DNA of 64,000 nucleotides from Actinomyces sp. (GCF_030524025.1 NZ_JAUNHI010000003.1:27294-91293), one strand, 5' to 3'. Shown: positions 13,495-55,087, counted from the first letter of the stretch. A program made the numbers and translations. Notes: generated by a model not told the origin, from the sequence alone.

Positions 13495-14385
13495 ATGAGT
13501 TCCTCGATCCGAGCCCTGGCCGACCGTGCACCACGTGGGACCCTGACCAAGGGGGAGCTGGGGCCGCCGCGGCGCGTGCCCGGCTCGATCCCGCGCCCCG
13601 AGTACATGTTCCACGACGGGCCCGAACGGGTGACCGCCTCCGACGTCAAGAACGCCGAGACCATTGAGCGCATCCGGGCCGCGGGGCGGCTGGCGGCCCG
13701 TGCCCTGGCCGAGGCTGCCGCGGCGATCGCACCGGGGGTGACCACCGATGAGCTCGACCGCATCGCCCACGAGTACCTGTGCGACCACGGCGCCTACCCC
13801 TCGTGCCTGGGCTACATGGGTTACCCCAAGTCGATCTGCACCTCGGTCAACGAGGTCATCTGCCACGGCATCCCGGACTCCACCGTGCTCAATGAGGGCG
13901 ACCTCATCAACATCGACGTCACCGCCTACCTCGACGGCGTACACGGGGACACCAACGCCACCTTCCCCGTCGGTGAGGTCGACGAGGAGACGGCCCTGCT
14001 CATCTCCCGTACCCGCACCGCCATGGAGCGCGGCATCCGCGCTGTGCGGCCGGGGCGGGAGGTCAACGTCATCGGACGGGTCATCGAGGCCTACGCCCGG
14101 CGCTTCGACTACGGAGTCGTGCGCGACTACACCGGCCACGGAGTGGGTGAGGCCTTCCACTCCGGTCTCATCATCCCCCACTACGACGCCGCCCCCCTGC
14201 ACGACGAGATCATGGAGGTGGGCATGGTCTTCACCATCGAGCCGATGCTCACCCTGGGCGGCATCGACTGGGAGCAGTGGGACGACGGGTGGACGGTGGT
14301 GACGCGGGACCGCTCCCGCACCGCACAGTTCGAGCACACCCTCGTGGTCACCGAGGACGGCGCCGAGGTGCTCACCGTGCCCTGA
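13495..14385 (+). CDS. map: type I methionine aminopeptidase (MapB-like, with N-terminal extension)
   Basis: Pita-bread fold motifs ([10 protein letters not shown], metal-ligand Asp/His/Glu pattern). An N-terminal extension [11 protein letters not shown] resembles MapB. Start chosen at MSSSIRAL. Confidence 0.9.
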
Positions 14386-14501
14386 GCGCGCGCAACCGTC
14401 ATGTCACCGAGTGGGACATGACGGCTCCCACCGTATACATTCAGTCGCTGGAGGGCGCTTGTCGCCGCATCCGCTCCCGTCCACCCATCCCGGAGGCCCT
14501 C

Positions 14502-15530: not shown

Positions 15531-15696
15531 GCGCCCCCGGTGCGCGAGCCCACGCCCGAGGACGCGCGCACCGGGAAGCACTCCCCATCCATGCCGCCCG
15601 TCAGGCGTGTGCCACTGCCCCCATGGCGTGTACATTCGTGACCGGACTGCATGACGCGTCACAACCGTTCGCCTCGTCGTCTCCCGGAGGTTCCAC

Positions 15697-16869
15697 ATGG
15701 CTCTGCGTTTCAACCCACCGCCGAACTGGCCCACTCCGCCTGACGGCTTCAACCCCCCGGCAGGCTGGCAGCCGGATCCGGCATGGGGGCCAGCGCCGGA
15801 GGGCTGGCAGCTGTGGGTCGAGGACTCGGGCACCGCTCCGGGCACGGGATCCGCTCCTCAGGCCGCCTCGGCTCCCGACGCCGGGTGGGCGCCGACGCGG
15901 GCGGTGTCGACGGGGTCCTCCCCGGTGGCCGACCCTACCGGGCAGTCCGCTGCAGCGCCGGCGGGAGACTACTCGGCGACTCCCATGGGCGGCATGGGCG
16001 GCTCGGCCCCGGTCGCGGGTTCGGCTCCTGTGGGCGGCTCCGCCCCCATGGTCGGCTCGGCCGCCTCCTCCGCGCCCTATGTGGGAGCCGACTACGCGCA
16101 GTCGCCGACCCCGTACCACAGCATGCCCGCCGGTGGTGGGCAGGTGCCGCCTCCGGGCAGTTGGCAGGCCGGAGCTCCGGTGCCCGGTGGCCCGGGAGCC
16201 TCCAAGCCTTTGGCCAAGCAGTGGTGGGTGTGGGCAATCATCGTCGGCATCGTGCTCGTCCTGGTCATCGGCATCGTGGCGCTCCTGGCCCGGGGTGGTT
16301 CGGACAGCAGCTCCAGTGGTGCGACGACGCGCAGCGCGACGCGGCAGACCTCCTCCGCCGAGGATCCCACCACCGACGCCGAAGCCCCGGAGGATGGGGA
16401 GGGCCTGTCGGAGTCCAACCCCATCGACCCCTCTCAGAGGGTCCTGACTTTCGCCGCGGACAAGTATGCGACCGACCCGAACGCCTCGATCGATGTCAAC
16501 TTCGGGGAAGTCAACTGGAACGGTGCGCAGTCCCTCAAGGACAGCTTCGCCGCTGACGGCTTGGAGACGTGGTATGAGGATCCGCCCGCCGGCAAGGTCT
16601 ATCTCCGCCTCTATGTCGAGGTCACCTACCACGGATCGGGACAGTTCAGCTCCTACGACCTGAGCATTGACTACGTCAACGGGGGCAACACCGTCGAGGC
16701 GGAGTACAGCCTCGCCTCGGACGAGTTCCGCAACCAGGACATGCCGCGTGACGGCGGCAAGGCTGCCGGCTTCGTCACCTTCGTCGTCGACGAGAGCCTG
16801 GCCAACTCCGGGGCGTTTGCCGTCACGGCCTTCTACGACTCCGAGGAGTACTACGTGTCGGCGGAGTGA
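15697..16869 (+). CDS. single-pass membrane protein paralog B: same N-terminal motif, TM, C-terminal DUF4352-like domain
   Basis: GGAGG RBS. The first 36 nt of the CDS are identical to paralog A. TM is WWVWAIIVGIVLVLVIGIVALLA. The C-terminal beta-rich domain (YLRLYVEVTYHGSG..AGFVTFVVDESLANSGAFAVTAFYD) is DUF4352-like. Confidence 0.7.
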   Translation: MALRFNPPPNWPTPPDGFNPPAGWQPDPAWGPAPEGWQLWVEDSGTAPGTGSAPQAASAPDAGWAPTRAVSTGSSPVADPTGQSAAAPAGDYSATPMGGMGGSAPVAGSAPVGGSAPMVGSAASSAPYVGADYAQSPTPYHSMPAGGGQVPPPGSWQAGAPVPGGPGASKPLAKQWWVWAIIVGIVLVLVIGIVALLARGGSDSSSSGATTRSATRQTSSAEDPTTDAEAPEDGEGLSESNPIDPSQRVLTFAADKYATDPNASIDVNFGEVNWNGAQSLKDSFAADGLETWYEDPPAGKVYLRLYVEVTYHGSGQFSSYDLSIDYVNGGNTVEAEYSLASDEFRNQDMPRDGGKAAGFVTFVVDESLANSGAFAVTAFYDSEEYYVSAE

Positions 16870-16952: not shown

Positions 16953-17344
<392 letters not shown>

Positions 17345-20801: not shown

Positions 20802-20886
20802 TGGTGCCTCCGGCGGGACTCGAACCCGCACGCCCGCAGGCAGCGACTTTTAAGGTCGCGGTGTCTACCCATTCCACCACGGAGGC
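20802..20886 (-). tRNA. tRNA-Leu (anticodon TAA), class II, CCA encoded
   Basis: Cloverleaf: acceptor GCCTCCG/CGGAGGC, anticodon stem GCGAC/GTCGC with loop CTTAAAA, 13-nt variable arm, T-arm GCGGG-TTCGAGT-CCCGC, then ACCA. Confidence 0.85.
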
Positions 20887-23470: not shown

Positions 23471-23561
23471 TACCCCCACTGGGATTCGAACCCAGGACCA
23501 CGTGTTTATCAGACACTGACGAGGTATAAGCTCGCTGCTCTAACCACTGAGCTATGGGGGC
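23471..23561 (-). tRNA. atypical 91-nt tRNA-like gene, candidate anticodon UAU, with a 23-nt variable arm carrying a second anticodon-like loop CUGAUAA
   Basis: Minus-strand sequence GCCCCCA-TA-GCTC-AGTGGTTA-GAGC-A-GCGAG-CTTATAC-CTCGT-CAGTGTCTGATAAACACGTGGTC-CTGGG-TTCGAAT-CCCAG-TGGGGGT-A(CC). The D- and T-arms and acceptor are canonical. The region between them holds two stem-loops where one is expected. Confidence 0.5.
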
Positions 23562-26583: not shown

Positions 26584-26656
26584 TGGACCCGGCCGGACTC
26601 GAACCGACGACCGACGCGGTGTAAACGCGTTGCTCTACCAGCTGAGCTACAGGTCC
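26584..26656 (-). tRNA. tRNA-Val (anticodon TAC)
   Basis: GGACCTG-TA-GCTC-AGCTGGTA-GAGC-A-ACGCG-TTTACAC-CGCGT-CGGTC-GTCGG-TTCGAGT-CCGGC-CGGGTCC-A. CCA is not encoded. Confidence 0.85.
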
Positions 26657-36118: not shown

Positions 36119-36190
<72 letters not shown>

Positions 36191-36281: not shown

Positions 36282-36821
36282 TCACGATGTGGGCAGACCC
36301 ACACCGTCACGGACACGGCGCTCCAGCACGACAAGTGCGGCGCGGTCGGCCTCGTCCAGCCCGTCGGGGGGCGCCGGAGTGCACACGGTGTAGAGCCCCC
36401 CGTCCTCGTCGCGGCGGGCACTGACGGTCACCCGCAGCCCCGAGGGCAGGGTGTCGCTGGCGGAGTGGACGAGGGCCGACTCGACCCGCTCGCGCAGGGC
36501 ACGGGCGAAGGGGGCGACATCGACCTCGCCGCCCTCAACCACGGTGGTCACCCGAAGGAGCAGCTCGGGCGCGGCGTCGATCCAGGTGATGGTGAAGGTC
36601 AGAGCGCCCGCGTCCCAGGCGCCCCGTGCCACCTCGTGCCAGGGCCGGGACAGCTCGGATCCGTCCTCCCCCAGCACCTCCAGGCCGCGGGCAGTGGCGG
36701 CCGCCCAGCGCCGGCCATCGGGTGCCAGCGGGACGGCGCCCAGGAGGGCCGCGCCGGGGCGGAGGTGTGCAGTGAGACCGGCGGGTAGGCGGGCGGGGCG
36801 ACGACGGGAGAACAAGGGCAT
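36282..36821 (-). CDS. hypothetical protein
   Basis: Start at [13 protein letters not shown]. 179 aa. Good GC3 bias. No family recognised. Confidence 0.5.
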
Positions 36822-36880
36822 GGCCCCACCGTACCGGGGCCCTCCGCCGGCTCGGTCCAGGTCCCAGGACGTGCGAGGAT

Positions 36881-37378
36881 GTGCCCATGGCATTCCGTGA
36901 CATCCGCATCATCGGCGACCCCGTGCTGCGCACCCCCTGCGACCCGATCACCGACCGTGACGCCACCGTCAAGGCGCTGGTCGAGGACCTGCTGGAGACG
37001 GTCGACGACGAGGGGCGGGCGGGCCTGGCCGCCAACCAGATCGGGGTGAGCCTGCGCGCCTTCTCCTGGAACATCGACGGGGAGATCGGCTACATCCTCA
37101 ACCCGGTGCTCGTGGAGGTCTCGGACGAGGAGTTCCAGGACGGCGACGAGGGCTGCCTGTCGGTGCCCGGCCTGTGGTACCCCACCGAGCGCGCCTGGTA
37201 CGCCCGGGCCGAGGGCATCGACCTCGACGGGCGCCCCGTGGTGGTCGAGGGCGAGGAGTTGATGGCCCGCTGCATCCAGCACGAGTGCGACCACCTCGAC
37301 GGCCGCCTCTACCTCGACCGTCTCAGCCGCGCCCACCGGGTCCAGGCGATGAAGGCACTGCGCGCCCAGGGGCTGTGA
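36881..37378 (+). CDS. def: peptide deformylase
   Basis: Motifs [16 protein letters not shown] and QHECDHLDG. Confidence 0.9.
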
Positions 37379-41807: not shown

Positions 41808-42311
41808 ATGATGCACCGGATCGGAGACCTGCCCTACACCTGGGTGTTCCTGCTGTTCTGGTCGGGAGGGATGATGCGCTCCAACACGATCTACTGGATC
41901 GGCCGGAGCATCACGGCCGGAACCGCCCGCAGCAGGTGGTCCACGATGCTCGACTCCCCCATGTACCTGACCGCCCAGTCCTGGACCGCACGCTGGGGCG
42001 TCCTGGCCGTGCCCCTGTCCTTCCTGACCATCGGCCTCCAGAGCTTCATCCAGCTGTCGGCCGGTGTGGCGCGCATGCCCCTGCGCCGCTACGTCCCCGC
42101 CACCGCCGTGGGCGCCGTCGCCTGGGCCACCATTTACACGACCATCGGCATGGCGGTCCTGGCCGCCTGGTACTCCAGCCCGGCGGGCCGCGTGGTCTCC
42201 GTGGTCCTCGTGGGCGTCGTCATCGGGTCGGTCATCCTCCAGCGCCGTCGCGCCGAGGAGGCCGCCCGCGCCCGAGGGCATGCGAGCCCCGTGGGCTCGG
42301 GCGCCCGGTAG
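41808..42311 (+). CDS. short DedA/VTT-family membrane protein
   Basis: RSNTIYWIGR..AGVARMPLRRYVPATAVGAVAWATIYTTIG resembles the C-terminal half of DedA. 167 aa, shorter than canonical. Confidence 0.55.
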   Translation: MMHRIGDLPYTWVFLLFWSGGMMRSNTIYWIGRSITAGTARSRWSTMLDSPMYLTAQSWTARWGVLAVPLSFLTIGLQSFIQLSAGVARMPLRRYVPATAVGAVAWATIYTTIGMAVLAAWYSSPAGRVVSVVLVGVVIGSVILQRRRAEEAARARGHASPVGSGAR

Positions 42312-42395
42312 CCCGCAGCCCTGCCGAGGGTCCCGGCATACGGACATACGGGGGCCGATTGGGAGCTGGTGTCGGGCCCGGGCTACAGTGGGCCT

Positions 42396-42461
42396 ATGAC
42401 AGCGCGGCACCTCACCTGGTGGTGGCTCCCCTCAGGGCGAGCCACCTCATCGTCGCGCTAG
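42396..42461 (+). CDS. trpL: trp operon leader peptide (MTARHLTWWWLPSGRATSSSR)
   Basis: 21-codon ORF with three consecutive Trp codons TGG TGG TGG, about 95 nt upstream of trpE. The Trp codons lie inside mutually exclusive hairpins. Confidence 0.55.
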   Translation: MTARHLTWWWLPSGRATSSSR

Positions 42462-42516
42462 AACGCACCGGCTCGCTCACCGCGGGCCACCTCGGCACCA
42501 TGCGTGAACGGCCCGC
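42421..42516 (+). promoter_or_regulatory. trp attenuator alternative stem-loops
   Basis: GGTGGCTC (42421-28) pairs with GAGCCACC (42439-46). GCGGGCC (42482-88) pairs with GGCCCGC (42510-16). The GGTGG Trp-codon segment can alternatively pair with the CCACC in 42485-91. Confidence 0.45.
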
Positions 42517-42556
42517 CTGACCACCGATCTGTGGAAGATCTCAGGAAAGAGGCCCC

Positions 42557-44251
42557 ATGGCAACCACGCCACCCGCAGTGCTGACCCGCATTGTGGCCTA
42601 CCACGCCGACGGCGGCGCCCTCCTGCAATCCCTGGCCCGTCAGGGCGTCCTGCGCACCGTCGCCGCTCAGGGCCCCGCCGACCGCCCCGTCGACTGCCTC
42701 CTGCTGGAGAGCGCGGACATCACGACCAAGGCGTCGCGTACAACAATCGCCGTGCTTGAGGCCTCCACCCGCCTGACCTGCCAGGGTCAGGAGGTCCTCC
42801 TCGAGGCTCTGCCCGGGGCCCCGGCCGACGGCCTGGCGGCCCTGGCACGCGTCCGGGAGGCGCTGCCCGAGCACATCGTCGAGGACTCCCCCGGGTGCCT
42901 GCGCCTGGAGATCCCCGCGCCCCCGGAGGACAGCGGCCTGGAGGAGCGCGAACGGCTGAGGTCCGTGTCGACCATCGAGCCGCTGCGGGTGCTGGCGGCC
43001 GCCGACGTCGACCACCCCCACCTGCCCCTGGAGGCGGGCGTCGTCGCCTTCGACTACCTGGCGACCTTCGAGTCCCTGCCCGAGGTCGCCCGGGGCGCCA
43101 ACACCTGCCCCGACTACCTCTTCTACGACGCCCGCATCATCCTCGTGGTCGACCACCCCACCGCCGAGGCGACCCTCGTGGGCGCCTCGGCGGACCCCCA
43201 GGCGCTGGCGGCGCGCATGGAGGAACTGGCGAGCGCCATCGACTCGGCCGAGTCGGCCGACTCGACCCGATCCGTCCCGCCGGTCAGCGGCGATCCGGGC
43301 GATCGGACCGTACGGGCCCTCCCCACGGTCTCGGACGCCGGCTTCGAGGCGGTCGTGGAGCGGATGAAGGAGCACATCGCCGCCGGCGACGTCTACCAGG
43401 TCGTGCCCTCCCGGGGGTTCACCCTGCCCTGCCCCGACGCCCTGGCCGCCTACCACCGGCTGCGCGAGTCCAACCCCAGCCCCTACATGTTCTACCTCGC
43501 CGCCCCCGACTTCGAGCTGTTCGGTGCCTCCCCCGAGTCGGCGCTGCTGCACTCGGCAGTATCGGGCGAGGTCGCCATCCGTCCCATCGCCGGCACCCGA
43601 CCCCGGGGCCTGAGCCCCGACGGCTCGGTCGACCACGAGCGCGACACCCGCCTGGAGCTGGAGCTGCGCACCGACGACAAAGAGGTCGCCGAGCACGTCA
43701 TGCTCGTAGACCTGGCCCGCAACGACGTCGCCCGCGTCAGTGTGCCGGGCAGCCGCCGGGTGGGCGACCTGCTGCGCGTGGACCGCTACAGCCGGGTCAT
43801 GCACCTGGTCTCAGAGGTCTCCGGGCGCCTGGCCCCCGACCTCGACGCGCTCGACGCCTTCCGCGCCTCGATGACGATGGGCACGCTGACCGGCGCCCCC
43901 AAGCTGCGTGCCGCCGAGCTCATCCGCGACGTCGAGGGCGTGCGCCGCGGCTCCTACGGCGGGTCGGTGGGCTACTTCCGGCGCGACGGCGAGCTGGACA
44001 CCTGCATCGTCATCCGCGCGGCCTTCGTGCACGAGGGCACCGCCCTCGTCCAGGCCGGTGCGGGCGTCGTGTCGGACTCGGTACCCGCCGCCGAGGCGGC
44101 CGAGACCATCCACAAGGCCTCGGCGGTCCTCGAGGCCGTGGCGGCGGCCCAGGGCGCCAGGCTCGTCATCGGCCCCCGACCGGGCTGCGAGAACGCCGCC
44201 GGCAAGGACAGCACAGGCAGCACACACAGCACAGACAGCGAGGTGGCCTGA
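42557..44251 (+). CDS. trpE: anthranilate synthase component I
   Basis: 564 aa. Chorismate-binding C-terminal domain GTLTGAPKLRAAELI and GGSVGYF. N-terminal regulatory domain with an LLES motif. Confidence 0.95.
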   Translation: MATTPPAVLTRIVAYHADGGALLQSLARQGVLRTVAAQGPADRPVDCLLLESADITTKASRTTIAVLEASTRLTCQGQEVLLEALPGAPADGLAALARVREALPEHIVEDSPGCLRLEIPAPPEDSGLEERERLRSVSTIEPLRVLAAADVDHPHLPLEAGVVAFDYLATFESLPEVARGANTCPDYLFYDARIILVVDHPTAEATLVGASADPQALAARMEELASAIDSAESADSTRSVPPVSGDPGDRTVRALPTVSDAGFEAVVERMKEHIAAGDVYQVVPSRGFTLPCPDALAAYHRLRESNPSPYMFYLAAPDFELFGASPESALLHSAVSGEVAIRPIAGTRPRGLSPDGSVDHERDTRLELELRTDDKEVAEHVMLVDLARNDVARVSVPGSRRVGDLLRVDRYSRVMHLVSEVSGRLAPDLDALDAFRASMTMGTLTGAPKLRAAELIRDVEGVRRGSYGGSVGYFRRDGELDTCIVIRAAFVHEGTALVQAGAGVVSDSVPAAEAAETIHKASAVLEAVAAAQGARLVIGPRPGCENAAGKDSTGSTHSTDSEVA

Positions 44252-44252
44252 C

Positions 44253-44936
44253 ATGCGCGTCATCCTGCTCGACAACCGCGACTCCTTCGTCTACAACCTC
44301 GTCGACCAGTTCGCCTCCCTGGGCACGGGCATCGAGGTCTACCGCAACACGGTTGCTCCGGACACCGTGCTGACCGCGCTGGAGCCCACCGCCGAGGAGT
44401 CCGCCCAGGGGCTGCGCCCGGTGCTGTGCCTGTCGCCCGGGCCCGGACACCCCCAGGGCTCCGGATGCCTCATGGACCTGGTGGCCGCCGCCCTCGAGCG
44501 CTCGATCCCGACCCTGGGCATCTGCCTGGGCTTCCAGGCCATCGTCGAGGCCTGCGGCGCCAGGGTCGACCGTGTCGGCCCGGTCCACGGACGCTCGGTG
44601 CGCGTCGAGGTGACCGCCGCGGGCCGGACCGACCCCGCCTTCGAGGTGCTGGCCGGCGGGCCCCTGGACGTCGGCCGCTACCACTCCCTGGGCACCCGCG
44701 AGCTGCCCCGTGACCTGGTGCCCCTGGCACACACCCTCGACGGGGTCGTCATGGCCGCCCGTCACCGCAGCGCCCCGGTCGTGGGCCTGCAGTTCCATCC
44801 CGAGTCGGTGCTCACGCCCCAGGGCCCGGGGATCCTCAAGTCCCTGACCGCCGACCTCACCCGGGCCGCAGGCGCGCACTGCGCCCCGACCGGACCCAGC
44901 CCCATGCCGACCACCAGCCCCGGAGGATCACGATGA
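44253..44936 (+). CDS. trpG: anthranilate synthase component II (glutamine amidotransferase)
   Basis: Class I GATase triad (GICLGFQ, HPES). Starts 2 nt after the trpE stop. Confidence 0.9.
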   Translation: MRVILLDNRDSFVYNLVDQFASLGTGIEVYRNTVAPDTVLTALEPTAEESAQGLRPVLCLSPGPGHPQGSGCLMDLVAAALERSIPTLGICLGFQAIVEACGARVDRVGPVHGRSVRVEVTAAGRTDPAFEVLAGGPLDVGRYHSLGTRELPRDLVPLAHTLDGVVMAARHRSAPVVGLQFHPESVLTPQGPGILKSLTADLTRAAGAHCAPTGPSPMPTTSPGGSR

Positions 44937-46054
44937 CCGCCGACTCCACTGAGACCACCACGACCAACGGCACTGGGCAGTCCGGGCAGTCCGGGCGGCC
45001 GGGCCGATCCCCCGCCGTCGCCGACGCCCAGGACGCCCACCGACTCCTGCGCTCGGTCATCCAGGGTAGGCGCCTGACCCAGGAGGAGACCGGCGTCGTC
45101 TTCGCCGCCCTGGGTGCAGGGGACCTGTCCGAGGCGGAGACCGCCGCCCTCCTGGCCGCTCTGCACGCCCGCGGGGAGACTCCCGAGGAGCTGGCCGGCG
45201 CGGCCGGCGCCTTCCGCGCCGCCGCTAGGCCCTTCCCGGAGGTCACCTTCCCCCTGGTCGACGTCGTGGGCACGGGGGGCGACGGCGCCGGGACCATCAA
45301 CATCTCGACCGCCGCCGGGATCGTGGCCGCCTCGATGGGGGTGTCGGTAGCCAAGCACGGCAACCGGGCTGTGTCCTCGCGCACGGGGGCGGCCGACGTC
45401 GTCGCCGCACTGGGCCTGCCCCTGGACCTCGAACCCCAGCGGGCCGTCGAGATCCTCGCCCGCGACCACTTCACCTTCCTGTTCGCCCAGGCCTACCACC
45501 CGGCCATGCGCCACGTCGCGCCGGTGCGCCAGGCGCTCGCCACCCCGACGATCTTCAACGTCCTGGGCCCGCTGCTCAACCCGGCCCACCTGACCTACCA
45601 GCTCATGGGCGTGGCCGACCCCGCCATCCTCGACATGATCGCCGAGACGATGGTGTGCCTGGGCCGCAAGCGCGCGCTCATCGTCCACGGCGCCGGCACC
45701 GACGAGATCGCCGTCCACGGCACGACCCTCGTGCGCGAAGCCACTCCCCGCGGGGTCAAGGCCTACACGGTCGACCCCGAGGACCTGGGCGTGTCCCGCT
45801 ACGACCTGTCCGATCTCGAGGGCGGCGAGCCGCAGGACAACGCCCGCCTCCTGCGCGAGGTGTTCGCCGGAGGGGGCGCCCAGGCGCACCGCGACGCCAT
45901 CGCCGTCAACGCCGGAGCCCTGCTCTACCTGGCCGGTCCCGCCGACGACCTCGCCGACGGCACCCGCATGGCCCTCGAGCAGCTGGCCAGCGGCAGGGTC
46001 GGCGCCCACCTGGAGTCCATGACCACCGCCGCCCAGATCGAGGAGGAGCGATGA
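44933..46054 (+). CDS. trpD: anthranilate phosphoribosyltransferase
   Basis: Motifs [20 protein letters not shown] and [13 protein letters not shown] overlap with trpG. Confidence 0.9.
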
Positions 46055-48282
46055 GCCCCGTCACCAGGCCGCAGGACGGGGCACGCCCCGAGCGCCTGCC
46101 CGTCGAGGCCCGCCTCATCGCCACCGGCACGGTCCTGGACTCCATCGTCGAGGGGCGCCGCGCCCGCCTGCCCGAGCTGCGCGAGCGCTTCGGCCACCTG
46201 CGCGCCGCGGACCTGCCGCGCTCCGAGCGCTCACTGGCCCGGGCCCTGCGCACCCGCACGGGCCCGGGCGCCATCGAGCAGCCGGCGCTCATCATGGAGT
46301 GCAAGGCCGCCTCCCCCTCGCGCGGGACCCTGCGCACCGCCTACGACCCGGCCGAGCTGGCCCGCGCCTACGCGCCCCACGCCGCCGCCGTGTCCGTGCT
46401 CACCGAGCCTGACCGTTTCAACGGCTCCTTCGAGGACCTCGCGGCCGTGCGCGGCGAGGTCGACGTGCCCGTGCTGTGCAAGGACTTCATCGTCGATGAG
46501 GTCCAGGTGCTGGCCGCCCGCTCGCTGGGCGCCGACGCGATCCTGCTCATGCTCTCGGTCGTGCCCGACGACGTCTACCGCGAGCTGGCCGGGCTGGCCG
46601 AGTCCCTGGGCATGGACGTGCTCACCGAGGTGTCCACGCGCGAGGAGATGCGCCGCGCCGCCGCCCTGGGGGCACGGGTCATCGGCATCAACAACCGGGA
46701 CCTGCGCACCCTGGCCACCGACATCGCTCGCACCGAGGAGCTCGCACCCCTCGCACCGGCCGGTGTCGTGCTCGTCGGCGAGTCCGGTGTCCACGAGCCC
46801 CAGGACGTGCGCCGCCTGGCCGGGCTCGTCGATGCCCTGCTCGTGGGCTCGGCCCTGTCGAGCGCCCCCGACCCGGGCGCCGTCGCGCAGGCCCTGGCCG
46901 CGGCCGTCGAGCCCCGCCGCGAGCGGGGGGAGGCCGGGCGGGCCCACGGCGACCACCACCACCCGCGTCTGAGCGCCTACTACGGCCAGTACGGGGGCCA
47001 GTACGTCCCCGAGCTGCTCATCCCCGCCCTCGACCAGCTCGAGGACGCCTTCATCGAGGCCCAGGCCGACCCGTCCTTCGCCGCCGAGCTCAACGAGCTG
47101 CTCCACCGGTACCTGGGGCGGCCCACGCCGGTCACCGAGCTGCGCAACCTCCCCCGGGAGGGCAATGCCCGCATCTTCCTCAAGCGCGAGGATCTCGTCC
47201 ACGGCGGGGCCCACAAGGGCAACCAGGTCCTGGGACAGGCCCTCCTGGCCCGCCGCATGGGCAAGTCCCGGATCATCGCCGAGACCGGCGCCGGGCAGCA
47301 CGGCACGGCCACCGCCATGGTCTGCGCCCTGCTGGGGCTGGAGTGCACGATCTACATGGGCGCCACCGACGTCGTGCGGCAGGCCTCCAACGTCGAGCGC
47401 ATGGAGCTGATGGGGGCACGGGTCCTCCCCGTGGCCTCGGGGGCCGGCACCCTCAAGGACGCCGTCAACGAGGCCCTGCGGGACTGGTCGGCCTCCTTCC
47501 ACGACACCCACTACCTCCTGGGCACGGCCGCCGGCGCCCACCCCTTCCCCACCATCGTCCACGAGTACCACCGCTGCATCTCCGTGGAGGCGCGCGCCCA
47601 GATCCTTGAGATGACCGGACGCCTGCCTGACGAGGTCATCGCCTGCGTGGGCGGGGGCTCCAACGCCATCGGCATGTTCTCCGAGTTCGTCGCCGACCAG
47701 GGCGTGGGCCTCATCGGGGTCGAGCCGGCCGGCGAGGGCCTGGGCACCGCGCGCCACGGCGCCCCGATCAACCAGGGCACGGTCGGCATTCTCCACGGGG
47801 CCCGCAGTTATCTCATGCGCACCCCCGACGGCCAGGTCGAGGAGTCCTTCTCCGTCTCGGCGGGACTGGACTATCCCGGTGTGGGGCCCGAGCACGCCTG
47901 GCTGGCCGACACCGGCCGGGCCCGCTATGTCGGCGTCACCGACGCCCAGGCCCTCGAGGCCTTCGAGCTGCTGTCGCGGTGGGAGGGCATCGTCCCCGCC
48001 CTGGAGTCGGCCCACGCCCTGGCCCAGGCCCTCGCCATCGCCCGGCGAACCCCCGACCACCTCCCGGCACCGCACCTGCTCGTGTGCCTGTCGGGCCGCG
48101 GCGACAAGGACCTCGACCAGGTCCGGGCGCTGCGCGGGGGGAGCTTCAGCTCCGACTCCGCCGTCGCCCGCGCGGCCGTCATGGTCGAACAGATGGGCAA
48201 ACGCACGGAGTACCAGTCGATGACCCAGTCGATGACCCAGCCCGTGCAGCAGCCCGTGACCGGCGAGGAGCCCCGAGGATGA
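46051..48282 (+). CDS. trpCB: fused indole-3-glycerol-phosphate synthase / tryptophan synthase beta chain
   Basis: Single 743-codon frame. The N-terminal 280 aa are IGPS ([28 protein letters not shown]). The C-terminal 440 aa are PLP-dependent TrpB ([41 protein letters not shown]). No stop or start codon separates them. ATGA overlap with trpD. Confidence 0.85.
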
Positions 48283-49136
48283 CCCGTTACACCGCGATGT
48301 TCGACCGCCTGTCCCGCGACGGGCAGGGCGCCTTCGTCCCCTTCGTCATGGTCGGCGACCCGACCGCGGCCCTGTCGGAGGATGTCATCGAGGCGCTCAT
48401 CGAGGCCGGTGCCGACGCCCTCGAGCTCGGCGTGCCCTTCTCCGACCCGGTCGCCGACGGGCCGACCATCCAGCGCGCCCACATCCGCGCCCTGGAGGCC
48501 GGCTCGGACTTCGAGGCCTGCCTGCAGGTCGTGGGCCGTGTCCGGGGGCGCCACCCCGACCTGCCCATCGGCATGCTCATCTACGGCAACGTGCCCTTCG
48601 CCCGCGGCCTGGAGGCCTTCTACGCCGACTGCGCCGCCGCGGGCGTCGACTCGGTGCTCGTCCCCGACGTCCCGGTGCGCGAGTCCGCGCCCTTCTCCGC
48701 GGCGGCCGCGGCGGCCGGCGTCGACGCGGTCTACATCGCACCGCCGTCGTCATCGGCCCAGACCCTCGACGCGGTGGCCGAGGCCTCCCGGGGCTATGTC
48801 TACGCCGTCTCGCGGGTCGGTGTCACGGGCGCCGAGCACGCCTCGTCGACGGCCGGCCTGGCCGAGTCAGTGGCGCGCCTGCGGGCCGACGCCGCCGCGC
48901 CGGTCATGCTGGGCTTCGGGATCTCCCGGCCCGAGCAGGTTGCCGAGGCCATCGCCGCCGGGGCCGACGGCGCCATCTCCGGCTCGGCGACCGTGGCCAT
49001 CATCGAGCGCCACGCCCCGGCGCTCCTGTCGACGGCGCAGGGCGGGGACGACCGAGCCGCCGCCGTGGCGGCCATGGTCGATGAGCTCACGGAGTTCGTC
49101 GCAGCGATGAAGGCAGCGACCCTGCCGACCCCCTGA
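48279..49136 (+). CDS. trpA: tryptophan synthase alpha chain
   Basis: ATGA overlap with the trpB stop. [28 protein letters not shown] and GFGIS motifs. Confidence 0.9.
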
Positions 49137-49317
49137 ACCCGTCGTCAACAACACGGACCCACCGGCAGGGGCGCAGAGGGGGCGGAGGGGAGCAATACCC
49201 GGAGGCGGAACTTGCCCCGCGGTCCTCCGGCGTGTGATGCTGAATCCGGCGGAGTTCCGCATTTCTTGACATTGCTTGACCTGAGCGACAAACCTGACCT
49301 CCCTGGAAAGGCTCATC

Positions 49318-50880
49318 ATGCACATTGACACGCCCCGGCCGACTGCGCTGTGGCGCCGTACCCTCGCTTTTCTCCTCGCTACTCCCTTGGCCGCAGCCGC
49401 CCTGGCCGTCCCCGCCCAGGCCGACACCCAGCCGCAACCCGTCCCTCTTGACCAGATCAGCGCCTCCGGCTCCTACGACTCGACCTCCGAGGCGTGTCGC
49501 GGCTCGGAGGATGCCTCCGACTGCCTGACCTGGGCGGTGGTCGTGCCCGACTCCCTGGCGGCCGAGGACGGCTCGGTGACCGTCACCGTCGAGGCCGACT
49601 CGGCGCCGGGCCAGTGGAGCTGGGCCTGCCCGGCCGCCACCCGGGCGGCCGGCACCGCCAGCTTCCTCACCCCCGACAGTCAGACCGGCGGGGTCAGCGT
49701 CCTGGCCAGCGCCGAACTGTCCGAGCACTCGACACTCAACTACGGCCTGTACGGGGACTCGGTGGCCTCGATCGACACCGTCGAGTGCACCCCCGAGCAC
49801 CTGCGGCTGACCGTGAGCGCCGACTTCTCCTACCAGCCGGCGGGCTCTTATCTCACCCTGGACCTCGGCACGGCGGTCCACGCCCCGGGCACCGCCGAAC
49901 GCAGCTACGACTTCGCCCCGGAGGTCATCGCCTCGACCCGCACCGACTCGGTGACCCCGACGGCCACCGTCCAGAAGAAGGACGCGGCCGCCGCGCAGGT
50001 GTCGGTGACCACGAGCCGGGTCGATGATCCCGCCGCCCAGGCCGGCGCCGGGGCCATGGCTATTGAGGCGCGCAACGACTCGGCCTCCGCCCTGACTGAC
50101 TTCACCGTCTCGCCGGCGGTGACCACCGGGCCGGCCACGATCACCTCGCTGACCTGTGACCTGATCGCCTACGGTGGGCAGGTCGTCACCGACTCCGACC
50201 CGGCCGACGGTCTGAGCGTGGCCAGCGGCACCGCCTCAGTGCCCAGCGGGCAGGCCGTCAGCTGCCGGGCCGACCTGGCCGGCGTCGTGGGCCGCAACAC
50301 GGTGACCACCTCGGTGACGGCGGGCGGCGAGACCTTCACCGGCGCCTACACCGACGACCGCCCGGTCACGAGCACGGCCCTGACCACCGAGTCCCCCACG
50401 GTCCAGGTCGAGTCCCTGAGCCCCGGGGCCGATGGCAGCCCGCGCAACTACGTCGCCTTGACCTACACGGTCACCTTCACCAACACGACGGATGCGGCGG
50501 GCCGCACCCCCCAGGTGGTCCTCCACCCCCACACGCCCACCGGACTGAGCTTCGCCGGCGTGTGGGCCGCCTGGCAGTGGCAGGAGGGGACCTTCAAGCC
50601 CTACAGCGACTTCCTCGTCCCGGAGGCGGACGGCACCCTGCACCTGCCCAACGAGACCGCCCTGGGGGCCTACTCGACGCACACGGTCAGCCTGACCGCC
50701 TACTACGACATCGACGTCGCCGCTGTCACGGCGGCGGGAGGCTGGGACCAGCTCGGCGCCTGCGTGGCGGGCGACCCGACAACCGGCCTGACCACCGACG
50801 TCGAGGTCACCGCCGGCCCCGGCATCGAGGCCACGACCCACACGACCTGCACGGCCGTGACCCGTCCCGAGGGCCAGTAG
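49318..50880 (+). CDS. secreted Thr/Ser/Ala-rich protein of unknown function
   Basis: Signal peptide ending LAVPAQA|DT. 520 aa. No LPXTG or lipobox. Beta-rich low-complexity composition. Confidence 0.6.
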   Translation: MHIDTPRPTALWRRTLAFLLATPLAAAALAVPAQADTQPQPVPLDQISASGSYDSTSEACRGSEDASDCLTWAVVVPDSLAAEDGSVTVTVEADSAPGQWSWACPAATRAAGTASFLTPDSQTGGVSVLASAELSEHSTLNYGLYGDSVASIDTVECTPEHLRLTVSADFSYQPAGSYLTLDLGTAVHAPGTAERSYDFAPEVIASTRTDSVTPTATVQKKDAAAAQVSVTTSRVDDPAAQAGAGAMAIEARNDSASALTDFTVSPAVTTGPATITSLTCDLIAYGGQVVTDSDPADGLSVASGTASVPSGQAVSCRADLAGVVGRNTVTTSVTAGGETFTGAYTDDRPVTSTALTTESPTVQVESLSPGADGSPRNYVALTYTVTFTNTTDAAGRTPQVVLHPHTPTGLSFAGVWAAWQWQEGTFKPYSDFLVPEADGTLHLPNETALGAYSTHTVSLTAYYDIDVAAVTAAGGWDQLGACVAGDPTTGLTTDVEVTAGPGIEATTHTTCTAVTRPEGQ

Positions 50881-51005
50881 GTCCCCGCTCACGGAACCCC
50901 GCCACCGGCTCGCCGGCTGACCGCCCCAGGGGCGTCGGCCGGCGAGCCGCCGTTGGTGGCGGCCCCGCGCGGCAGGCTACGTGGCAGGCGCGGTAGGGTC
51001 GGGCC

Positions 51006-51512
51006 ATGGCTTCACTGCTCACCCGGGTGCTGGGCGCCCTGACACGCGCCCCCGCCTCTCCCCCCGCGACGGCCCGGCCCGCCTCGAAGCAGGGGGTGGC
51101 CGTCTACGACGTGGCGGCGCGAGGGCTGCCCGCCTTCACCTACGCCCCCGACCCCGACGGCCAGGCCGACCCCGGGGAGGTCGTGTGGACCTGGGTGCCC
51201 TACGAGGACGACCCCTCCCGCGGCAAGGACAGGCCCGTCCTCGTCCTGTCCCGCCTGCCCGAGGGGTTCGTCGTGGCCCAGATGACGAGCAAGGACCACG
51301 ACCGCGACGCCGCGCAGGAGGCCCGCTGGGGCAGGTACTGGGTCGATGTGGGCACCGGGGCCTGGGACAGCCGCGGCCGGCCCTCCGAGCTCCGCCTTGA
51401 CCGCCTCCTCATCGTCGCCCCGACGGCGGTGCGTCGTGAGGGGGCGACGATGAGCCGAGCCACCTTCGAGCGGGTCGTGGCGGCCCTGCGCTCCCACTGT
51501 GGAACGCTGTAA
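51006..51512 (+). CDS. PemK/MazF-fold toxin-like protein, solitary
   Basis: GEVVWTWVPYEDDPSRGKDRPVLVLS...GFVVAQMTSKD...LDRLLIV fits the PemK/MazF SH3-like barrel pattern, with a roughly 50-aa N-terminal extension. No adjacent antitoxin-sized ORF. Confidence 0.5.
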   Translation: MASLLTRVLGALTRAPASPPATARPASKQGVAVYDVAARGLPAFTYAPDPDGQADPGEVVWTWVPYEDDPSRGKDRPVLVLSRLPEGFVVAQMTSKDHDRDAAQEARWGRYWVDVGTGAWDSRGRPSELRLDRLLIVAPTAVRREGATMSRATFERVVAALRSHCGTL

Positions 51513-51597
51513 ACTAGGCAAGAGGCCCAGTCCCCGGTCGCATCATGACCCTGTCAACCGCCCCGCCAGGTCGCCACCCACACCTCTTCGATGGACC

Positions 51598-51750
51598 TGG
51601 GCAGTGGTCTGGTTCGGCCTTGTGGAGCGCCAGACCGTACGACGCGGGGTATTCAAGTCCGTCAAGGACCCCAACACCGAGCTCCGCGCCTACATCGATG
51701 GCTGGAACAAACGTTCCCGCCCCTTCACCTGGACCAAGACCGCAGAATAG
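51598..51750 (+). mobile_element. IS630-family (DDE_3) transposase C-terminal remnant
   Basis: WFGLVERQTVRRGVFKSVKDPNTELRAYIDGWNKRSRPFTWTKTAE matches the conserved C-terminal tail of IS630-like transposases (..RRGxFxSVxDL..I..yI..wN....PFxWTKTA). The DDE catalytic domain and inverted repeats are absent. Confidence 0.55.
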
Positions 51751-51946
51751 GTCTGGCCAATGTCAACAATCCCAGAATCGCCAGCTCTCGCCGTTAGCAA
51801 CGTCATGAAATGAACATCACTTAGAACCATGTTGCTAGCGACATCCGCACTAGTTTCCGTCTCCCACTGGACTGAGCGCCTCATAGCGCATAGAATGACG
51901 CCACGCGACACCGCCGTCGCACATGAACTCAAGGAAGGATAGCCTC

Positions 51947-52132
51947 ATGCCCAAACCATGGCTGAGGTACCTGGAAGTACGGGAGAAATTTGACCGTTGT
52001 ATGGTCCAAGTTCTACCACCCGACCCGGAGGCACGGCTCATCCGTGAAGAACGCGATAGTGACCGTTCGCTCTCCCCTGGTGGGCGCTGGCCAGTGGTCC
52101 GTCGCCCAGGTCCGCGCCACTCCAGGCAATAA
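51947..52132 (+). CDS. small basic hypothetical protein (61 aa)
   Basis: AAGGAAGGA RBS 7 nt upstream of the ATG. MPKPWLRYLEVREKFDRCMVQVLPPDPEARLIREERD... Lies in lower-GC DNA. No homology recognised. Confidence 0.25.
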   Translation: MPKPWLRYLEVREKFDRCMVQVLPPDPEARLIREERDSDRSLSPGGRWPVVRRPGPRHSRQ

Positions 52133-52163
52133 CCAAGCGTTCTACCGGTTCGGATAAGGTACG

Positions 52164-52197
52164 GGGGTGGTGAACTAGTGTACTGGCTCACCACCCC
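52164..52197 (+). other. perfect 10-bp hairpin GGGGTGGTGA-n14-TCACCACCCC, 22 nt upstream of the membrane-protein start
   Basis: Read directly from the sequence. Loop is ACTAGTGTACTGGC. Sits between the small ORF stop and ATG 52219. No U-run follows. Confidence 0.45.
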
Positions 52198-52218
52198 TAT
52201 CCCTGATACTGACAGATT

Positions 52219-54213
52219 GTGAACATGCAACACCTCGTGCGTCTGGTGCACGCCTTCAACCTGCTGCTGCTCATCGCATGCACCGTCATCATCCCCCAGC
52301 AGATCACCCCCACCTACTTCCCCGCGGAAGCCTCCGCCTACATCGCCATCGGTGCCAACGGCGTCACCAGCGCCGAGCTCATGAAGACGGCAACCGCCGA
52401 GAACGTCGTGCTCGCCCGCGCCCGACACGTCGGTGACAGCCAGACGCGCACCCTGACCATCGAAGTCGTCGGTGACGACCCGAACGCACAAGCGCTGGCC
52501 GAGCAGCCCCCGATCGGGCCGATCTTCACCCCGACACCCATCGCCTACGAGCATGTGGCGCCGACCACCGAACCTTATGGGGCCTGGTACGTCATCGGCG
52601 ACCCTCCCCAGGTGCGCACGTTCCTCACTCGTATCGTTAACACCTACGGCCCGGCAGTGATCGAAAGTGGACTGTTGTCACCAGCCTCCGTGTCCTCCCT
52701 CTGGGCCGCATTGCGTCAGTCGCCGCTGGGGATCAGCGCGCTGGCCTTGCAGCCCGCGATCGCGCTGACAGTCGTCCTCAGCGTGATGCGTCGGCCGCAG
52801 ATCGCACGGATTGCCCTGACCTGCGGTGCCTCACCCACGGCGATCACCGTTGGGACACTGGGCGCCCACCTCGCACGGGCTTCGCGCTGGACCATTCTTC
52901 CCGCCGCGGCCGTGCTGCTCATCATCGGTTACGACGTGTACCAGTCGGACGTTCTGAGCGTGCACCGTCTGATGGTCGGCATTCTCCTGACCCTGGTCAT
53001 CAGCACGGTTCTGGCCACCGCGCTCGCCGCACTACTGGCCTGTACAGTCGTGACCCGTCGCACCCAGGACATCGCGAGTACGGCGACGTCACATCTGACC
53101 TTCGCCCTTCTTTATCTCACCTCCCTGAGTCTGGTCTGGTCCTTCGCTCACGCAAGCCCAGCACTGGGCGCCACGATCACCGACGCAAGGGCCACTCACG
53201 ATCAAGCGCTCGCCCAAACCGAGATGCCCGGCTCCTACTCACCGACCATCTGGTACACGCATGAGGATGTCGTCCAGCAGATCATGCCCCGATGGACCAA
53301 GTTCATCAGAGATGAGGAACAGGCGGGCCACGTGCTTCTCGCATGGTCTTTGCCAGACCCCTCGGTCCGGGACGGAGGCACTCCGGCACTGTTTCTCAAC
53401 AACCAGGCAGCCGCCTTCTTCGGTATCCCGCCCACAGCGGATGACGCCGCCACCATCTACCTCCCGGAGCACCTGGGTGAGACGGATGATGCCGTGGCCG
53501 AGCGTGTCGAGTCGCTCTCGCAGTGGGAGCACGGCCTGGGCGCACAGAAAACAGTGGCGGCACATGTTGAGCGGAGTCCGGACGTCTTCACCCGTCTGCC
53601 AATGAACCTGCCGGCACTGAGCTATGCGGGGACCGTATCCGGACTGACCTCTCAAGACCATGTCCTGGTCGTCGTGCCCGACGGATTCTTCTCACCCGAC
53701 AACCAGTTCTCCGCAACCACTCTGGGGGGGCTAGTGCTTCTCGCGGAATCCGATGAGTCTCTGACGGACACCTTAACCTCCTATGGGCTGGACGGGATGG
53801 TCGCTGAAATCCGCCAGATCGGCGACGGCGACTCCGCGGTTCTGCGCGCATCGCGCACAACACTGGGCCTGCTGGCCGGGGTCGCGCTCCTGGCGGCCGT
53901 GTCTGCCGCAGTGACATCCGCTGTGGCAGCACGTGCGTGGGTGGAGGCCACCCGACGCGCCAGGCGCATCCGTCGCCTCCACGGCCGTGGTCGGGTGCGA
54001 GACGTCGTCGTCGGGGTCACCCTCTGTCTTCCACCCGGGCTGCTGCTGCTGCTCGTCGGAGTGACCGCCGACGACGTCACAAGGATGCTCTGTCTCACCA
54101 CAGCGCTCCTCCTGGCCGTCGTCACCGTGGCCTCGGCGGCCAGTGGTTCACCCGCCCGGTGGCACCACCGCCACACCCGCCAGTCGACTCTCACGCACCT
54201 GGATCCTTCATGA
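52219..54213 (+). CDS. 664-aa polytopic membrane protein, putative ABC transporter permease (two TM-bundle plus extracytoplasmic-domain halves, MacB/FtsX-like topology)
   Basis: N-terminal TM (LVHAFNLLLLIACTVII). A domain of about 160 aa. A cluster of 4 TM helices. A domain of about 220 aa. Then 2-3 C-terminal TM helices. The stop overlaps the ATPase start (ATGA). Codons are visibly more A/T-rich than in neighbouring genes. Confidence 0.6.
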   Translation: MNMQHLVRLVHAFNLLLLIACTVIIPQQITPTYFPAEASAYIAIGANGVTSAELMKTATAENVVLARARHVGDSQTRTLTIEVVGDDPNAQALAEQPPIGPIFTPTPIAYEHVAPTTEPYGAWYVIGDPPQVRTFLTRIVNTYGPAVIESGLLSPASVSSLWAALRQSPLGISALALQPAIALTVVLSVMRRPQIARIALTCGASPTAITVGTLGAHLARASRWTILPAAAVLLIIGYDVYQSDVLSVHRLMVGILLTLVISTVLATALAALLACTVVTRRTQDIASTATSHLTFALLYLTSLSLVWSFAHASPALGATITDARATHDQALAQTEMPGSYSPTIWYTHEDVVQQIMPRWTKFIRDEEQAGHVLLAWSLPDPSVRDGGTPALFLNNQAAAFFGIPPTADDAATIYLPEHLGETDDAVAERVESLSQWEHGLGAQKTVAAHVERSPDVFTRLPMNLPALSYAGTVSGLTSQDHVLVVVPDGFFSPDNQFSATTLGGLVLLAESDESLTDTLTSYGLDGMVAEIRQIGDGDSAVLRASRTTLGLLAGVALLAAVSAAVTSAVAARAWVEATRRARRIRRLHGRGRVRDVVVGVTLCLPPGLLLLLVGVTADDVTRMLCLTTALLLAVVTVASAASGSPARWHHRHTRQSTLTHLDPS

Positions 54214-54893
54214 CCGACATCGTCCTCGCTTCCGACCTGACCATCAGCAGAGGAGGTCGCACTCTTGTCAGCGGCCTGACCCTGGGCCTGTCGGCGGGCT
54301 CCGTCACCGCACTGACAGGCCCGAACGGATCGGGCAAAACCACGCTCGCCCGTTGTCTGGGCCTCTACGACCTCGACTTCAACGGGACGGTGAGGGTCGA
54401 TGACCGTGCCACCCAGACCATATCCGCACGCGAGCTCAGAGCCCTTCACCAAGGGACGATCGTCATCCAGCCCCAGGAACTCATGCTCGAGCCGTCCTGG
54501 AGTGCGCTGCGGAACCTGACCTACGCCGCCTGGGCCCTCGGCCTGCCCCGGCGCTGTCGGAAGCGCACGGCGCACGAGGTCCTGGAACGGGTTGGCGCCT
54601 CCCACCTGGCCAACACCACCGTTGAGCGCCTCAGCGGGGGCGAACAGGCCCGGATCGCGATCGCTCGCCTCCTGCTGTCCCCGGACCCACGGCTCATGAT
54701 CCTCGACGAGCCCACGGCCAGCGGCGATCGCGCGCTGCGGGATCTTGTCTCCGACGTCATCCGCTCCACCGTCGGACGCGGCGCAGCAGTCCTGCTCATC
54801 AGCCATGACCAGGCGCTAAGGTCCCTGACCGACGTGGAGATCCCTGTGGGGGCCGACGCCTCCGGAGCAGCCGACCGAACGCACCGGAGTTGA
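54210..54893 (+). CDS. ABC transporter ATP-binding protein
   Basis: Walker [11 protein letters not shown]-loop, signature [15 protein letters not shown], Walker [14 protein letters not shown]-loop ISHD. 227 aa. Confidence 0.85.
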
Positions 54894-55087
54894 CGCACCT
54901 CACGCCTCCGGCGGGAGGAGCCCCGGTCGGGCGTGATGCTACAGTCTCTCCTTGGACCTCTGGCCTGGCCGGCTGCGGGGTCTGGCGACCGGGCCCCGCC
55001 AGGTGCTTCCACCACCGTCCGTCGGCCCGCGACGCGAACCCTCTTTCCGGCCATCGACCATTCAGACACGAGAAAGCTTCACTCACC

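Follow-up and report, generated by a model that had tools for sequence, protein, structure and literature searches.

Are the indole-3-glycerol phosphate synthase TrpC (IGPS) and the beta subunit of tryptophan synthase (TrpB) truly encoded by a single gene in Actinomyces and, if so, where does this gene come from and what happened to trpF? The question was raised by a stretch of 64,000 nt from Actinomyces sp. (GCF_030524025.1, NZ_JAUNHI010000003.1:27294-91293), hereafter called the window. An earlier note, made from the sequence alone, had read one in-frame trpC-trpB gene (trpC·B) of 743 codons within a trp operon devoid of a phosphoribosylanthranilate isomerase (PRAI, TrpF) domain. The analysis presented here indicates that this open reading frame (ORF) is almost certainly a real, conserved, bifunctional IGPS-TrpB gene typical of the family Actinomycetaceae. 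It very probably belongs to a fusion lineage independent of, and convergent with, the fusion known from Bifidobacterium, and its likely source is an operon with a trpC·trpF gene (C·F type), from which trpF was lost.

The fused gene and its conservation

Between the ATG at 46051 and the TGA at 48280-48282, 743 sense codons are present without any in-frame stop over 2229 nt (Table 1). Re-reading the window returned the coordinates and the sequence given in the earlier note, and the junction peptide quoted there matches exactly. The IGPS half is matched by Pfam PF00218 over its full length (264 bits, profile positions 1-252 of 254). All its catalytic motifs are intact, including ESG and VGSAL; the residues considered were those which we take to be the equivalents of Glu51/Lys53, Lys110, Glu159, Asn180 and Ser211 in the numbering of S. 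solfataricus IGPS. The TrpB half passes the TrpB1 model TIGR00263, for which the curated cutoff is 392.45 bits, and Pfam PALP covers aa 355-668 of the fused protein. Its GAHKGN motif with the pyridoxal phosphate lysine, the SGRGDKD motif and the catalytic, phosphate-binding and COMM-domain motifs are also intact. The polypeptide thus has IGPS at the N-terminus and TrpB at the C-terminus, the domain order of NF010375. A tblastn search over the 64 kb identified one IGPS-like and one TrpB-like region and no others.

Table 1. The trp operon, the parts of its fused gene, and RNA genes in the window (positions counted from its first nucleotide)
Feature	Position	Strand	Remarks
trpL leader ORF MTARHLTWWWLPSGRATSSSR	42396..42461	+	21 codons; three tandem Trp codons; 95 nt upstream of trpE
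trpE, anthranilate synthase component I	42557..44251	+	564 aa; Pfam Chorismate_bind, E 1.4e-77
trpG, glutamine amidotransferase	44253..44936	+	227 aa; Pfam GATase, E 2e-38
trpD, anthranilate phosphoribosyltransferase	44933..46054	+	373 aa; Pfam Glycos_transf_3, E 3.8e-91
trpC·trpB fused gene	46051..48282	+	743 codons + stop; single ORF
IGPS (TrpC) domain	46135..46890	+	aa 29-280; Pfam PF00218, E 1.2e-78
Inter-domain linker	46900..46974	+	about aa 284-308; about 25 aa, low-complexity, shortest in the family
TrpB domain	46975..48129	+	aa 309-693; TIGR00263, 568.6 bits
C-terminal extension	48130..48279	+	aa 694-743, after SGRGDKD; begins L(D/E); conserved part, then variable tail
trpA, tryptophan synthase alpha	48279..49136	+	285 aa; Pfam Trp_syntA, E 1.8e-82; active-site motif intact
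RNase P RNA, class A	16958-17337	-	Rfam, 283 bits
Four tRNA genes	20805-20886, 23471-23561, 26584-26656, 36119-36190	-	Rfam

To compare the trp operons of relatives, one genome per species was scanned, seeded with six peptide patterns from the query. Each of the 79 loci obtained was classed by the stop-to-stop ORFs that hold its IGPS and TrpB matches. Of the 52 Actinomycetaceae loci, which cover Actinomyces spp., Boudabousia, Trueperella, Buchananella and Pauljensenia, 51 encode both domains in a single ORF and have the gene order trpE-G-D-(C·B)-A. The 743-aa protein itself (P0001) is present identically in NCBI, labelled 'MAG: Actinomyces sp.' (MAG, metagenome-assembled genome). More than 100 clusters at 90% identity, 726-782 aa in length, carry both Pfam domains, among them those of A. 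naeslundii, A. urogenitalis, A. dentalis, A. procaprae and oral taxon 448. In the Actinomycetaceae fusions, the inter-domain linker occurs in about 24 distinct lengths, between about 25 and about 90 aa, all of them in frame. Since none of these lengths breaks the frame, selection to keep the fused state is strongly indicated.

A missed indel near 46880-46990, falsely joining a separate trpC and trpB, was the concern raised with the original reading. Two observations speak for such an artefact: the window is probably MAG-derived, as the identical protein carries that label, and the closest named species, A. ruminis CtC72 (L063, 88% identity), is the lone exception among the 52 loci, with its C·B gene split. 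However, trpE and trpD of this locus are fragmented as well, so its split C·B gene is attributed to a generally poor assembly, probably indel errors rather than biology. The two domains of the window gene share a frame free of stops, and the same single ORF recurs in 51 of 52 independent assemblies, including scaffolds and chromosomes of 2.4-3.8 Mb. An artefact is therefore so improbable that it can be set aside; neither chance nor sequencing error can account for the fusion. The fused gene presumably supports tryptophan synthesis in vivo.

The missing trpF and PriA

None of the operon proteins contains a PRAI (PF00697) or His_biosynth domain above the curated cutoff, in agreement with the absence of trpF reported initially. 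A weak, sub-threshold His_biosynth match is seen in TrpA (21 bits, cutoff 23.6). No PRAI or HisA domain was found among ten other window ORFs of 170-290 aa, the remaining ORFs being judged by eye from their translations.

The initial suggestion that PriA supplies the TrpF step is backed by experiments in close relatives. The defect of an E. coli trpF mutant is complemented by PriA of A. urogenitalis, A. oris and oral taxon 171, and these PriA proteins show measurable phosphoribosylanthranilate (PRA) isomerase activity (PMC5404923). Moreover, a ΔpriA mutant of A. oris MG-1, a strain in which allelic exchange is available, is a tryptophan auxotroph (PMC5404923), which implies that the wild type makes tryptophan. 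According to the same study, the PriA and SubTrpF subfamilies cover the missing TrpF step in A. oris, A. urogenitalis, oral taxon 171, A. graevenitzii and A. odontolyticus (PMC5404923). The A. oris and A. urogenitalis loci in our set (L004, L017 and L064) carry the fused gene. PriA, the dual-substrate HisA/TrpF isomerase of Actinomycetota, hence accounts for the trpF step. It is not encoded among the window ORFs scanned; as priA lies outside the 64-kb window, its presence in the source genome is expected from these relatives.

Relation to the Bifidobacterium fusion

An IGPS-TrpB architecture is already known and annotated in Bifidobacterium. NF010375 is the NCBIfam equivalog 'bifunctional indole-3-glycerol phosphate synthase/tryptophan synthase subunit beta' (also PRK13802), a name that RefSeq uses for 695-aa Bifidobacterium proteins (e.g. 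P0348). The literature also describes bifidobacterial TrpB as 'a chimeric polypeptide with TrpC' (PMC11085991). Both fusions have the same two domains in the same order, followed by trpA, and in both cases trpF is lacking and PriA is used.

The profile models separate the two. Against a curated cutoff of 1386 bits for NF010375, the window protein scores only 613.2 bits and the Actinomyces representative P0121 623.6 bits, whereas Bifidobacterium P0123 reaches 1559 bits. The best IGPS-only model for the window is NF006945, the E. coli-type TrpC·F (296.9 bits, model positions 6-253 of 461). With half of the model left unmatched, this score does not reach the whole-protein cutoff of 380. Monofunctional TrpC models give at most 219 bits on the window protein, while the Bifidobacterium IGPS half passes the monofunctional model NF001369 with 367 bits.

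Comparison with proteins in the PDB shows opposite affinities for both halves. The window IGPS is nearest to TrpCF 7etx (235 bits), followed by E. coli 1pii (195) and M. tuberculosis 3qja (150), whereas the Bifidobacterium IGPS is nearest to M. tuberculosis (273), followed by E. coli (138) and 7etx (126). Likewise, the window TrpB scores about 540 bits with E. coli/Salmonella and 452 with M. tuberculosis, as opposed to 440 (Salmonella) and 519 (M. tuberculosis) for the Bifidobacterium TrpB. The window TrpA (255-275 bits with Vibrio/E. coli/Salmonella, 120 with M. tuberculosis) and TrpE (445 with Salmonella 1i1q, its best match, and 248 with M. tuberculosis 5cwa) indicate that the remainder of the operon has the same affinities as the C·B gene. 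That the PDB codes in question belong to M. tuberculosis is confirmed by PMC7609029. For 7etx, the name TrpCF is the depositor's molecule name.

Neighbour-joining (NJ) trees (200 bootstraps) were constructed for the IGPS domain (220 columns) and the TrpB domain (381 columns). The Actinomycetaceae C·B proteins are monophyletic in 199/200 bootstraps in each tree. The split between these together with the C·F-type proteins on the one hand, and the Bifidobacterium C·B, M. tuberculosis and the others on the other hand, is recovered in 198/200 (IGPS) and 200/200 (TrpB). Bifidobacterium pairs with M. tuberculosis in 171/200 and 192/200 bootstraps of the two domain trees.

The genomic contexts differ as well. 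The window contains a whole-pathway operon with a leader peptide, whereas the Bifidobacterium gene lies in a classic actinobacterial neighbourhood, (C·B)-trpA-lgt-rpe-hisE-hisG, with no trpEGD nearby.

Origin of the fusion

One of the known systems closest to the window is the trpL-trpE-G-D-(C·F)-B-A operon of enteric bacteria and Corynebacterium (NF006945; 1pii), which is alike in gene order, coupling and WWW leader, and is the nearest type for the window IGPS, TrpB, TrpA and TrpE. Compared to this type, the window lacks the PRAI domain, the stop codon of trpC·F and the start codon of trpB; the Actinomycetaceae IGPS is joined to TrpB by a linker of 25-90 aa, and the TrpB has gained a C-terminal extension. 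The nearest non-fused relatives belong to Dermabacteraceae, Corynebacterium, Deinococcus, Sutterella, Photobacterium and Providencia. In each of them, a single ORF encodes IGPS and PRAI, trpB follows as a gene of its own, and the operon order is the same, as confirmed with Pfam in five. In the TrpB tree, the fused clade is nested inside these C·F-bearing lineages in 200/200 bootstraps. The most parsimonious reading of such nesting is that the ancestor was of the C·F type and lost its F module.

The breakpoints are in line with this. C·F proteins read ...PDIDRAARELVYGxNKVCGL..., whereas the fusions read ...PDPAEAARELATAVPLP..., and the homology to the C·F proteins stops exactly at the start of the first PRAI beta strand (NKVCGL). 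Towards TrpB, the linker ends in a conserved EHxGHxHPRLxAYFG that is similar to the N-terminal tail of the free-standing Corynebacterium TrpB in L066/L067 (MTDYSHGGHTLLPAYYG). The linkers of two Actinomyces loci (L025 and L048) hold an in-frame CGG GAG AAG ACC ATG ACT/AAC GAC, in which a Shine-Dalgarno (SD)-like GGGAGAA precedes ATG-Thr/Asn-Asp by 6 nt. This parallels the real trpB starts of Corynebacterium L066/L067. From its sequence, this element could be a fossil of the ancestral trpB start, and it might allow internal initiation of free TrpB in those two species.

It is thus likely, on the basis of these comparisons, that the Actinomycetaceae fusion derives from a C·F-type operon by loss of trpF. 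In the ancestor of the Actinomycetaceae, the PRAI module and the trpC·F stop codon would have been lost in frame, joining the last IGPS helix to TrpB via the former intergenic region and the N-terminal tail of TrpB. The missing trpF and the C·B fusion are then probably two faces of one deletion. Such a loss would have been tolerable because the actinobacterial PriA, a HisA homologue, already isomerises PRA. The Bifidobacterium fusion would have been built independently, from native actinobacterial trpC and trpB.

Several points weigh against this derivation. In the IGPS tree, nesting within the C·F lineages is recovered in only 131-141 of 200 bootstraps, and both are NJ trees on short alignments. 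A PRAI profile built from 28 C·F-type proteins detected no PRAI remnant in the linkers of the window and the other Actinomycetaceae fusions (hmmsearch --max, all scores negative), so that the deletion is deduced from phylogeny and breakpoints. The 52 Actinomycetaceae loci include no intermediates, neither a trpC·F-trpB nor a split trpC/trpB. The SD-like element with ATG is present in only 2 of about 50 linkers, where it may have arisen by chance. Furthermore, typical actinobacterial genes are represented in the comparisons by M. tuberculosis and Bifidobacterium only, and seeding with query-derived patterns biases the sampling of loci towards similar operons.

Two other histories have to be considered. 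The fusion could be the same as that of NF010375, with Bifidobacteriaceae and Actinomycetaceae both having received it from a shared ancestor. The fusions have an identical domain order and linkers of similar length, NF010375 aligns over the junction of the window protein as a single stretch, and the two families are taxonomic neighbours within the actinobacteria. Nevertheless, such an ancestry is very unlikely, given how far the window score falls below both the cutoff and the Bifidobacterium protein, the opposite PDB affinities of the two halves, the 198-200 of 200 bootstraps parting the two groups and the different genomic contexts; the C-terminal region of the Bifidobacterium fusion is also unlike the Actinomycetaceae extension. 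Common descent is thus contradicted by the reciprocal PDB scores as well as by the NJ trees. Alternatively, trpF may have been lost, or never present, leaving adjacent but separate trpC and trpB genes that were fused later by loss of a stop codon or a small deletion, presumably also the course of events in Bifidobacterium. This two-step route fits the recurrence of C·B fusions where trpF is absent between C and B (Bifidobacterium, P0122/L082 and P0125/L083), the lack of PRAI remnants in the linkers, and the putative fossil start in two linkers as a product of intergenic read-through. On the other hand, all sampled sister lineages are of the C·F type, and separate trpC and trpB genes occur in none of the 52 Actinomycetaceae loci. 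Although the data cannot separate the two routes, a single in-frame deletion is more parsimonious, and the two-step route is considered unlikely, though less so than a shared ancestry with Bifidobacterium.

Linker, C-terminal extension and channelling

The linker of the window contains no in-frame ATG, GTG or TTG, and the SD-like GGGGGGAGG in it is not followed by a start codon in this frame. An internal translation start for free TrpB was therefore rejected for the window. In an AlphaFold2 model of the fused protein (mean predicted local distance difference test score, pLDDT, 72; predicted template modelling score, pTM, 0.49), both domains are folded, while residues 289-322 have a pLDDT below 50 and no secondary structure. 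The underlying alignment is shallow, with 24 sequences that are 47-91% identical to the window protein (most of them 78-91%); consequently, the model informs on domain folding and linker disorder, not on domain packing.

A C-terminal extension is present in all Actinomycetaceae fusions and absent from the C·F-type TrpBs, which end 10-36 aa after GRGDKD (except in the Dermabacteraceae beta-alpha fusions discussed below). The model places helices at residues 703-715 and 718-726 of the extension, with low confidence.

As a separate observation, the linkers of L030-L038, L040, L042, L046 and L047 (Trueperella/Pauljensenia/Schaalia-like) and of L026-L029 and L039 share a semi-conserved segment, ...SAGHxFLEEAALHTSW(R/K)PYSSERLGA.... 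This segment, with the pattern W-x-P-(Y/F/H/R)-S, is missing in the linkers of Actinomyces sensu stricto and has no match to the PRAI profile. It may be a short structured or docking element.

What could the fusion do for the enzyme? By inference, the TrpB moiety would dimerise and bind TrpA canonically, resulting in an (IGPS-beta)2-alpha2 complex with an IGPS barrel on a flexible, disordered tether at each beta N-terminus. Such a tether would fix a 1:1 ratio of IGPS to TrpB and keep the production of indole-3-glycerol phosphate (IGP) close to TrpA. As the linker is variable, low-complexity and predicted to be disordered, proximity and stoichiometry are suggested rather than a sealed channel; we give this role of the fusion an even chance. 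The earlier note proposed that, owing to the fusion, IGP would be passed straight to the TrpA/TrpB channel. This is not supported: IGP is the substrate of TrpA, and IGPS is tethered to TrpB by a variable, disordered linker.

In a true channel, IGP made by IGPS would enter TrpA directly and continue through the alpha-beta tunnel. IGPS and TrpA do catalyse consecutive steps, the covalent link to TrpB puts IGPS beside TrpA, the conserved, lineage-specific extension could in principle dock, and the fusion has been kept despite many linker indels. However, the linker varies about fourfold in length besides being low-complexity and predicted to be disordered, and the model shows no confident inter-domain packing. 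Many Actinomyces also have a free-standing trpB beside the operon, so that their enzyme system is not organised strictly around the fusion. All this makes a true channel rather improbable. Equally doubtful is a more elaborate scenario, in which a PriA-enabled in-frame excision of trpF from an acquired enteric-type trpC·F was followed by elaboration of the 'AVPxP'/'HPRL' linker ends and the C-terminal helices, producing a trifunctional (IGPS-beta)2-alpha2 enzyme with IGPS docked near TrpA and IGP handed over without release. If true, this would lengthen the classic tryptophan synthase channel by one step.

Operon context

The domain matches and junctions in Table 1 bear out the order trpL-E-G-D-(C+B)-A proposed at the outset, with trpC·B as the fourth cistron, counted after the leader, of a translationally coupled operon. 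ATGA overlaps are found at trpG/trpD, trpD/trpC·B and trpC·B/trpA, and the trpE/trpG junction is TGAcATG. The claim of ATGA or TGA-ATG coupling at every junction was thus essentially right, apart from this 1-nt spacer between trpE and trpG.

The trpL ORF with its tandem Trp codons lies just 5' of trpE and is kept in relatives, as is characteristic of an attenuation leader. MTAFRxRQWWWLP... homologues are present 5' of trpE in nearly all Actinomycetaceae loci, and many C·F-type operons have WWWLA or WWWRA leader peptides. Folding of the leader region gives a z of -2.15, and an Rfam scan of the whole window for trp leaders or attenuators gave no match there, its only hits being the RNase P RNA and the four tRNAs of Table 1. 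A pattern scan of 42250-49400 for intrinsic terminators and promoters returned nothing, but is uninformative at 71% GC.

Other trp fusions and trpB paralogues

A survey of 1.84 billion representatives at 50% identity retrieved direct IGPS-TrpB fusions in few clusters, namely P0121 (Actinomyces type), P0123 (Bifidobacterium), P0122 and P0125. P0122 (L082:4703-6706) and P0125 (L083:6001-7797) are direct IGPS-TrpB fusions in trpD-(C·B)-trpA operons without trpF, and in L083 a Trp_repressor (TrpR) gene is located upstream of trpE. IGPS-PRAI-TrpB triple fusions were found as well (P0124, 818 aa; P0126, 893 aa, from a Chloroflexota MAG; P0128, 967 aa), and a model exists for PRAI-TrpB fusions (NF010376). 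Like the window gene, the triple, PRAI-TrpB and TrpB-TrpA fusions indicate that TrpB tolerates N-terminal partners from preceding pathway steps. Unlike the window gene, they keep PRAI or involve TrpA, and they lie outside the window clade in the trees.

The TrpB-TrpA fusion was observed in Dermabacteraceae bacterium TAE3-ERU5 and ERU27 (L051:9453-11585 and L053), where trpB and trpA form one 711-aa ORF. It has the Pfam domains PALP and Trp_syntA and a linker of about 60 aa, in an operon still with trpC·F. In the fungal tryptophan synthase fusion, the order is alpha-beta.

In many Actinomyces, a second trpB, free-standing and on the same strand, lies directly upstream of trpL-trpE (L001:1951-3387, L005:2518-4095, L019:1791-3314, L021:2915-4408 and L043:1679-3097). 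It is also present in L006, L024, L041, L044 and L049, in the Corynebacterium loci L056 and L060, and, standing alone, in a Schaalia MAG (L073:3252-4604). These copies are 63-67% identical to the window TrpB domain and 53-57% to M. tuberculosis TrpB; being nearer to the former, they represent a paralogue within the C·F-operon lineage. The Actinomyces and Schaalia copies are 76-90% identical to each other. By tblastn, no such paralogue is present in the 64-kb window. Possible roles of the free-standing trpB are indole salvage or the supply of a beta subunit that is not fused.

Remainder of the window

Elsewhere in the window, two adjacent paralogous ORFs (14151-15527 and 15655-16866, both +) share a Pro/Trp-rich N-terminus, MALRFNPPPNWPxPPxGFxPPAGWQPDPxWGPAPxGWQLWVEDS.... 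After it come a stretch of low complexity, a transmembrane segment and a C-terminal domain that is divergent. The GC content at third codon positions in 51500-54900 is about 0.6-0.77, compared to about 0.9 in the rest of the window. By eye, an FtsX-like permease (52213-54210) and an ABC ATPase (53808-54890) can be recognised in this stretch, and a PemK/MazF-like toxin ORF (50997-51509) adjoins it. The stretch may have been horizontally acquired. The 208-aa ORF at 36285-36908 (-), whose coding statistics are good, is without a Pfam match at E <= 0.01.

Annotation and significance

The Actinomyces fusions of about 750 aa (P0001-P0120) are already in the public databases, where NCBI and UniRef name them just 'tryptophan synthase subunit beta'. 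The IGPS half is invisible in this annotation because the proteins miss the NF010375 cutoff, which is tuned to Bifidobacterium. As a consequence, automated metabolic reconstructions may score trpC as missing in Actinomycetaceae, a naming gap that matters for studies on auxotrophy for amino acids and on genome decay in Actinomyces of the mouth and gut. In the searchable literature, no description of an Actinomyces TrpC-TrpB fusion was found, nor any account of the Actinomycetaceae fusion as an independent event or as a trpF-loss product of trpC·F-trpB. PMC11872490 was considered as a report of a trpC-trpB fusion and rejected, as it just lists the E. coli genes trpC-trpB-trpA.

Nothing known about the tryptophan pathway is overturned by these results. 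They show that the IGPS-TrpB architecture has at least two origins, in Bifidobacterium and in Actinomycetaceae, and probably four when P0122 and P0125 are counted. With the redundancy of one gene, trpF, by way of PriA leading to the fusion of its two neighbours, the locus would be a tidy example of its kind. It also provides a natural case in which to ask whether flux is improved when IGPS is tethered to tryptophan synthase, in a family that includes the genetically tractable A. oris MG-1.

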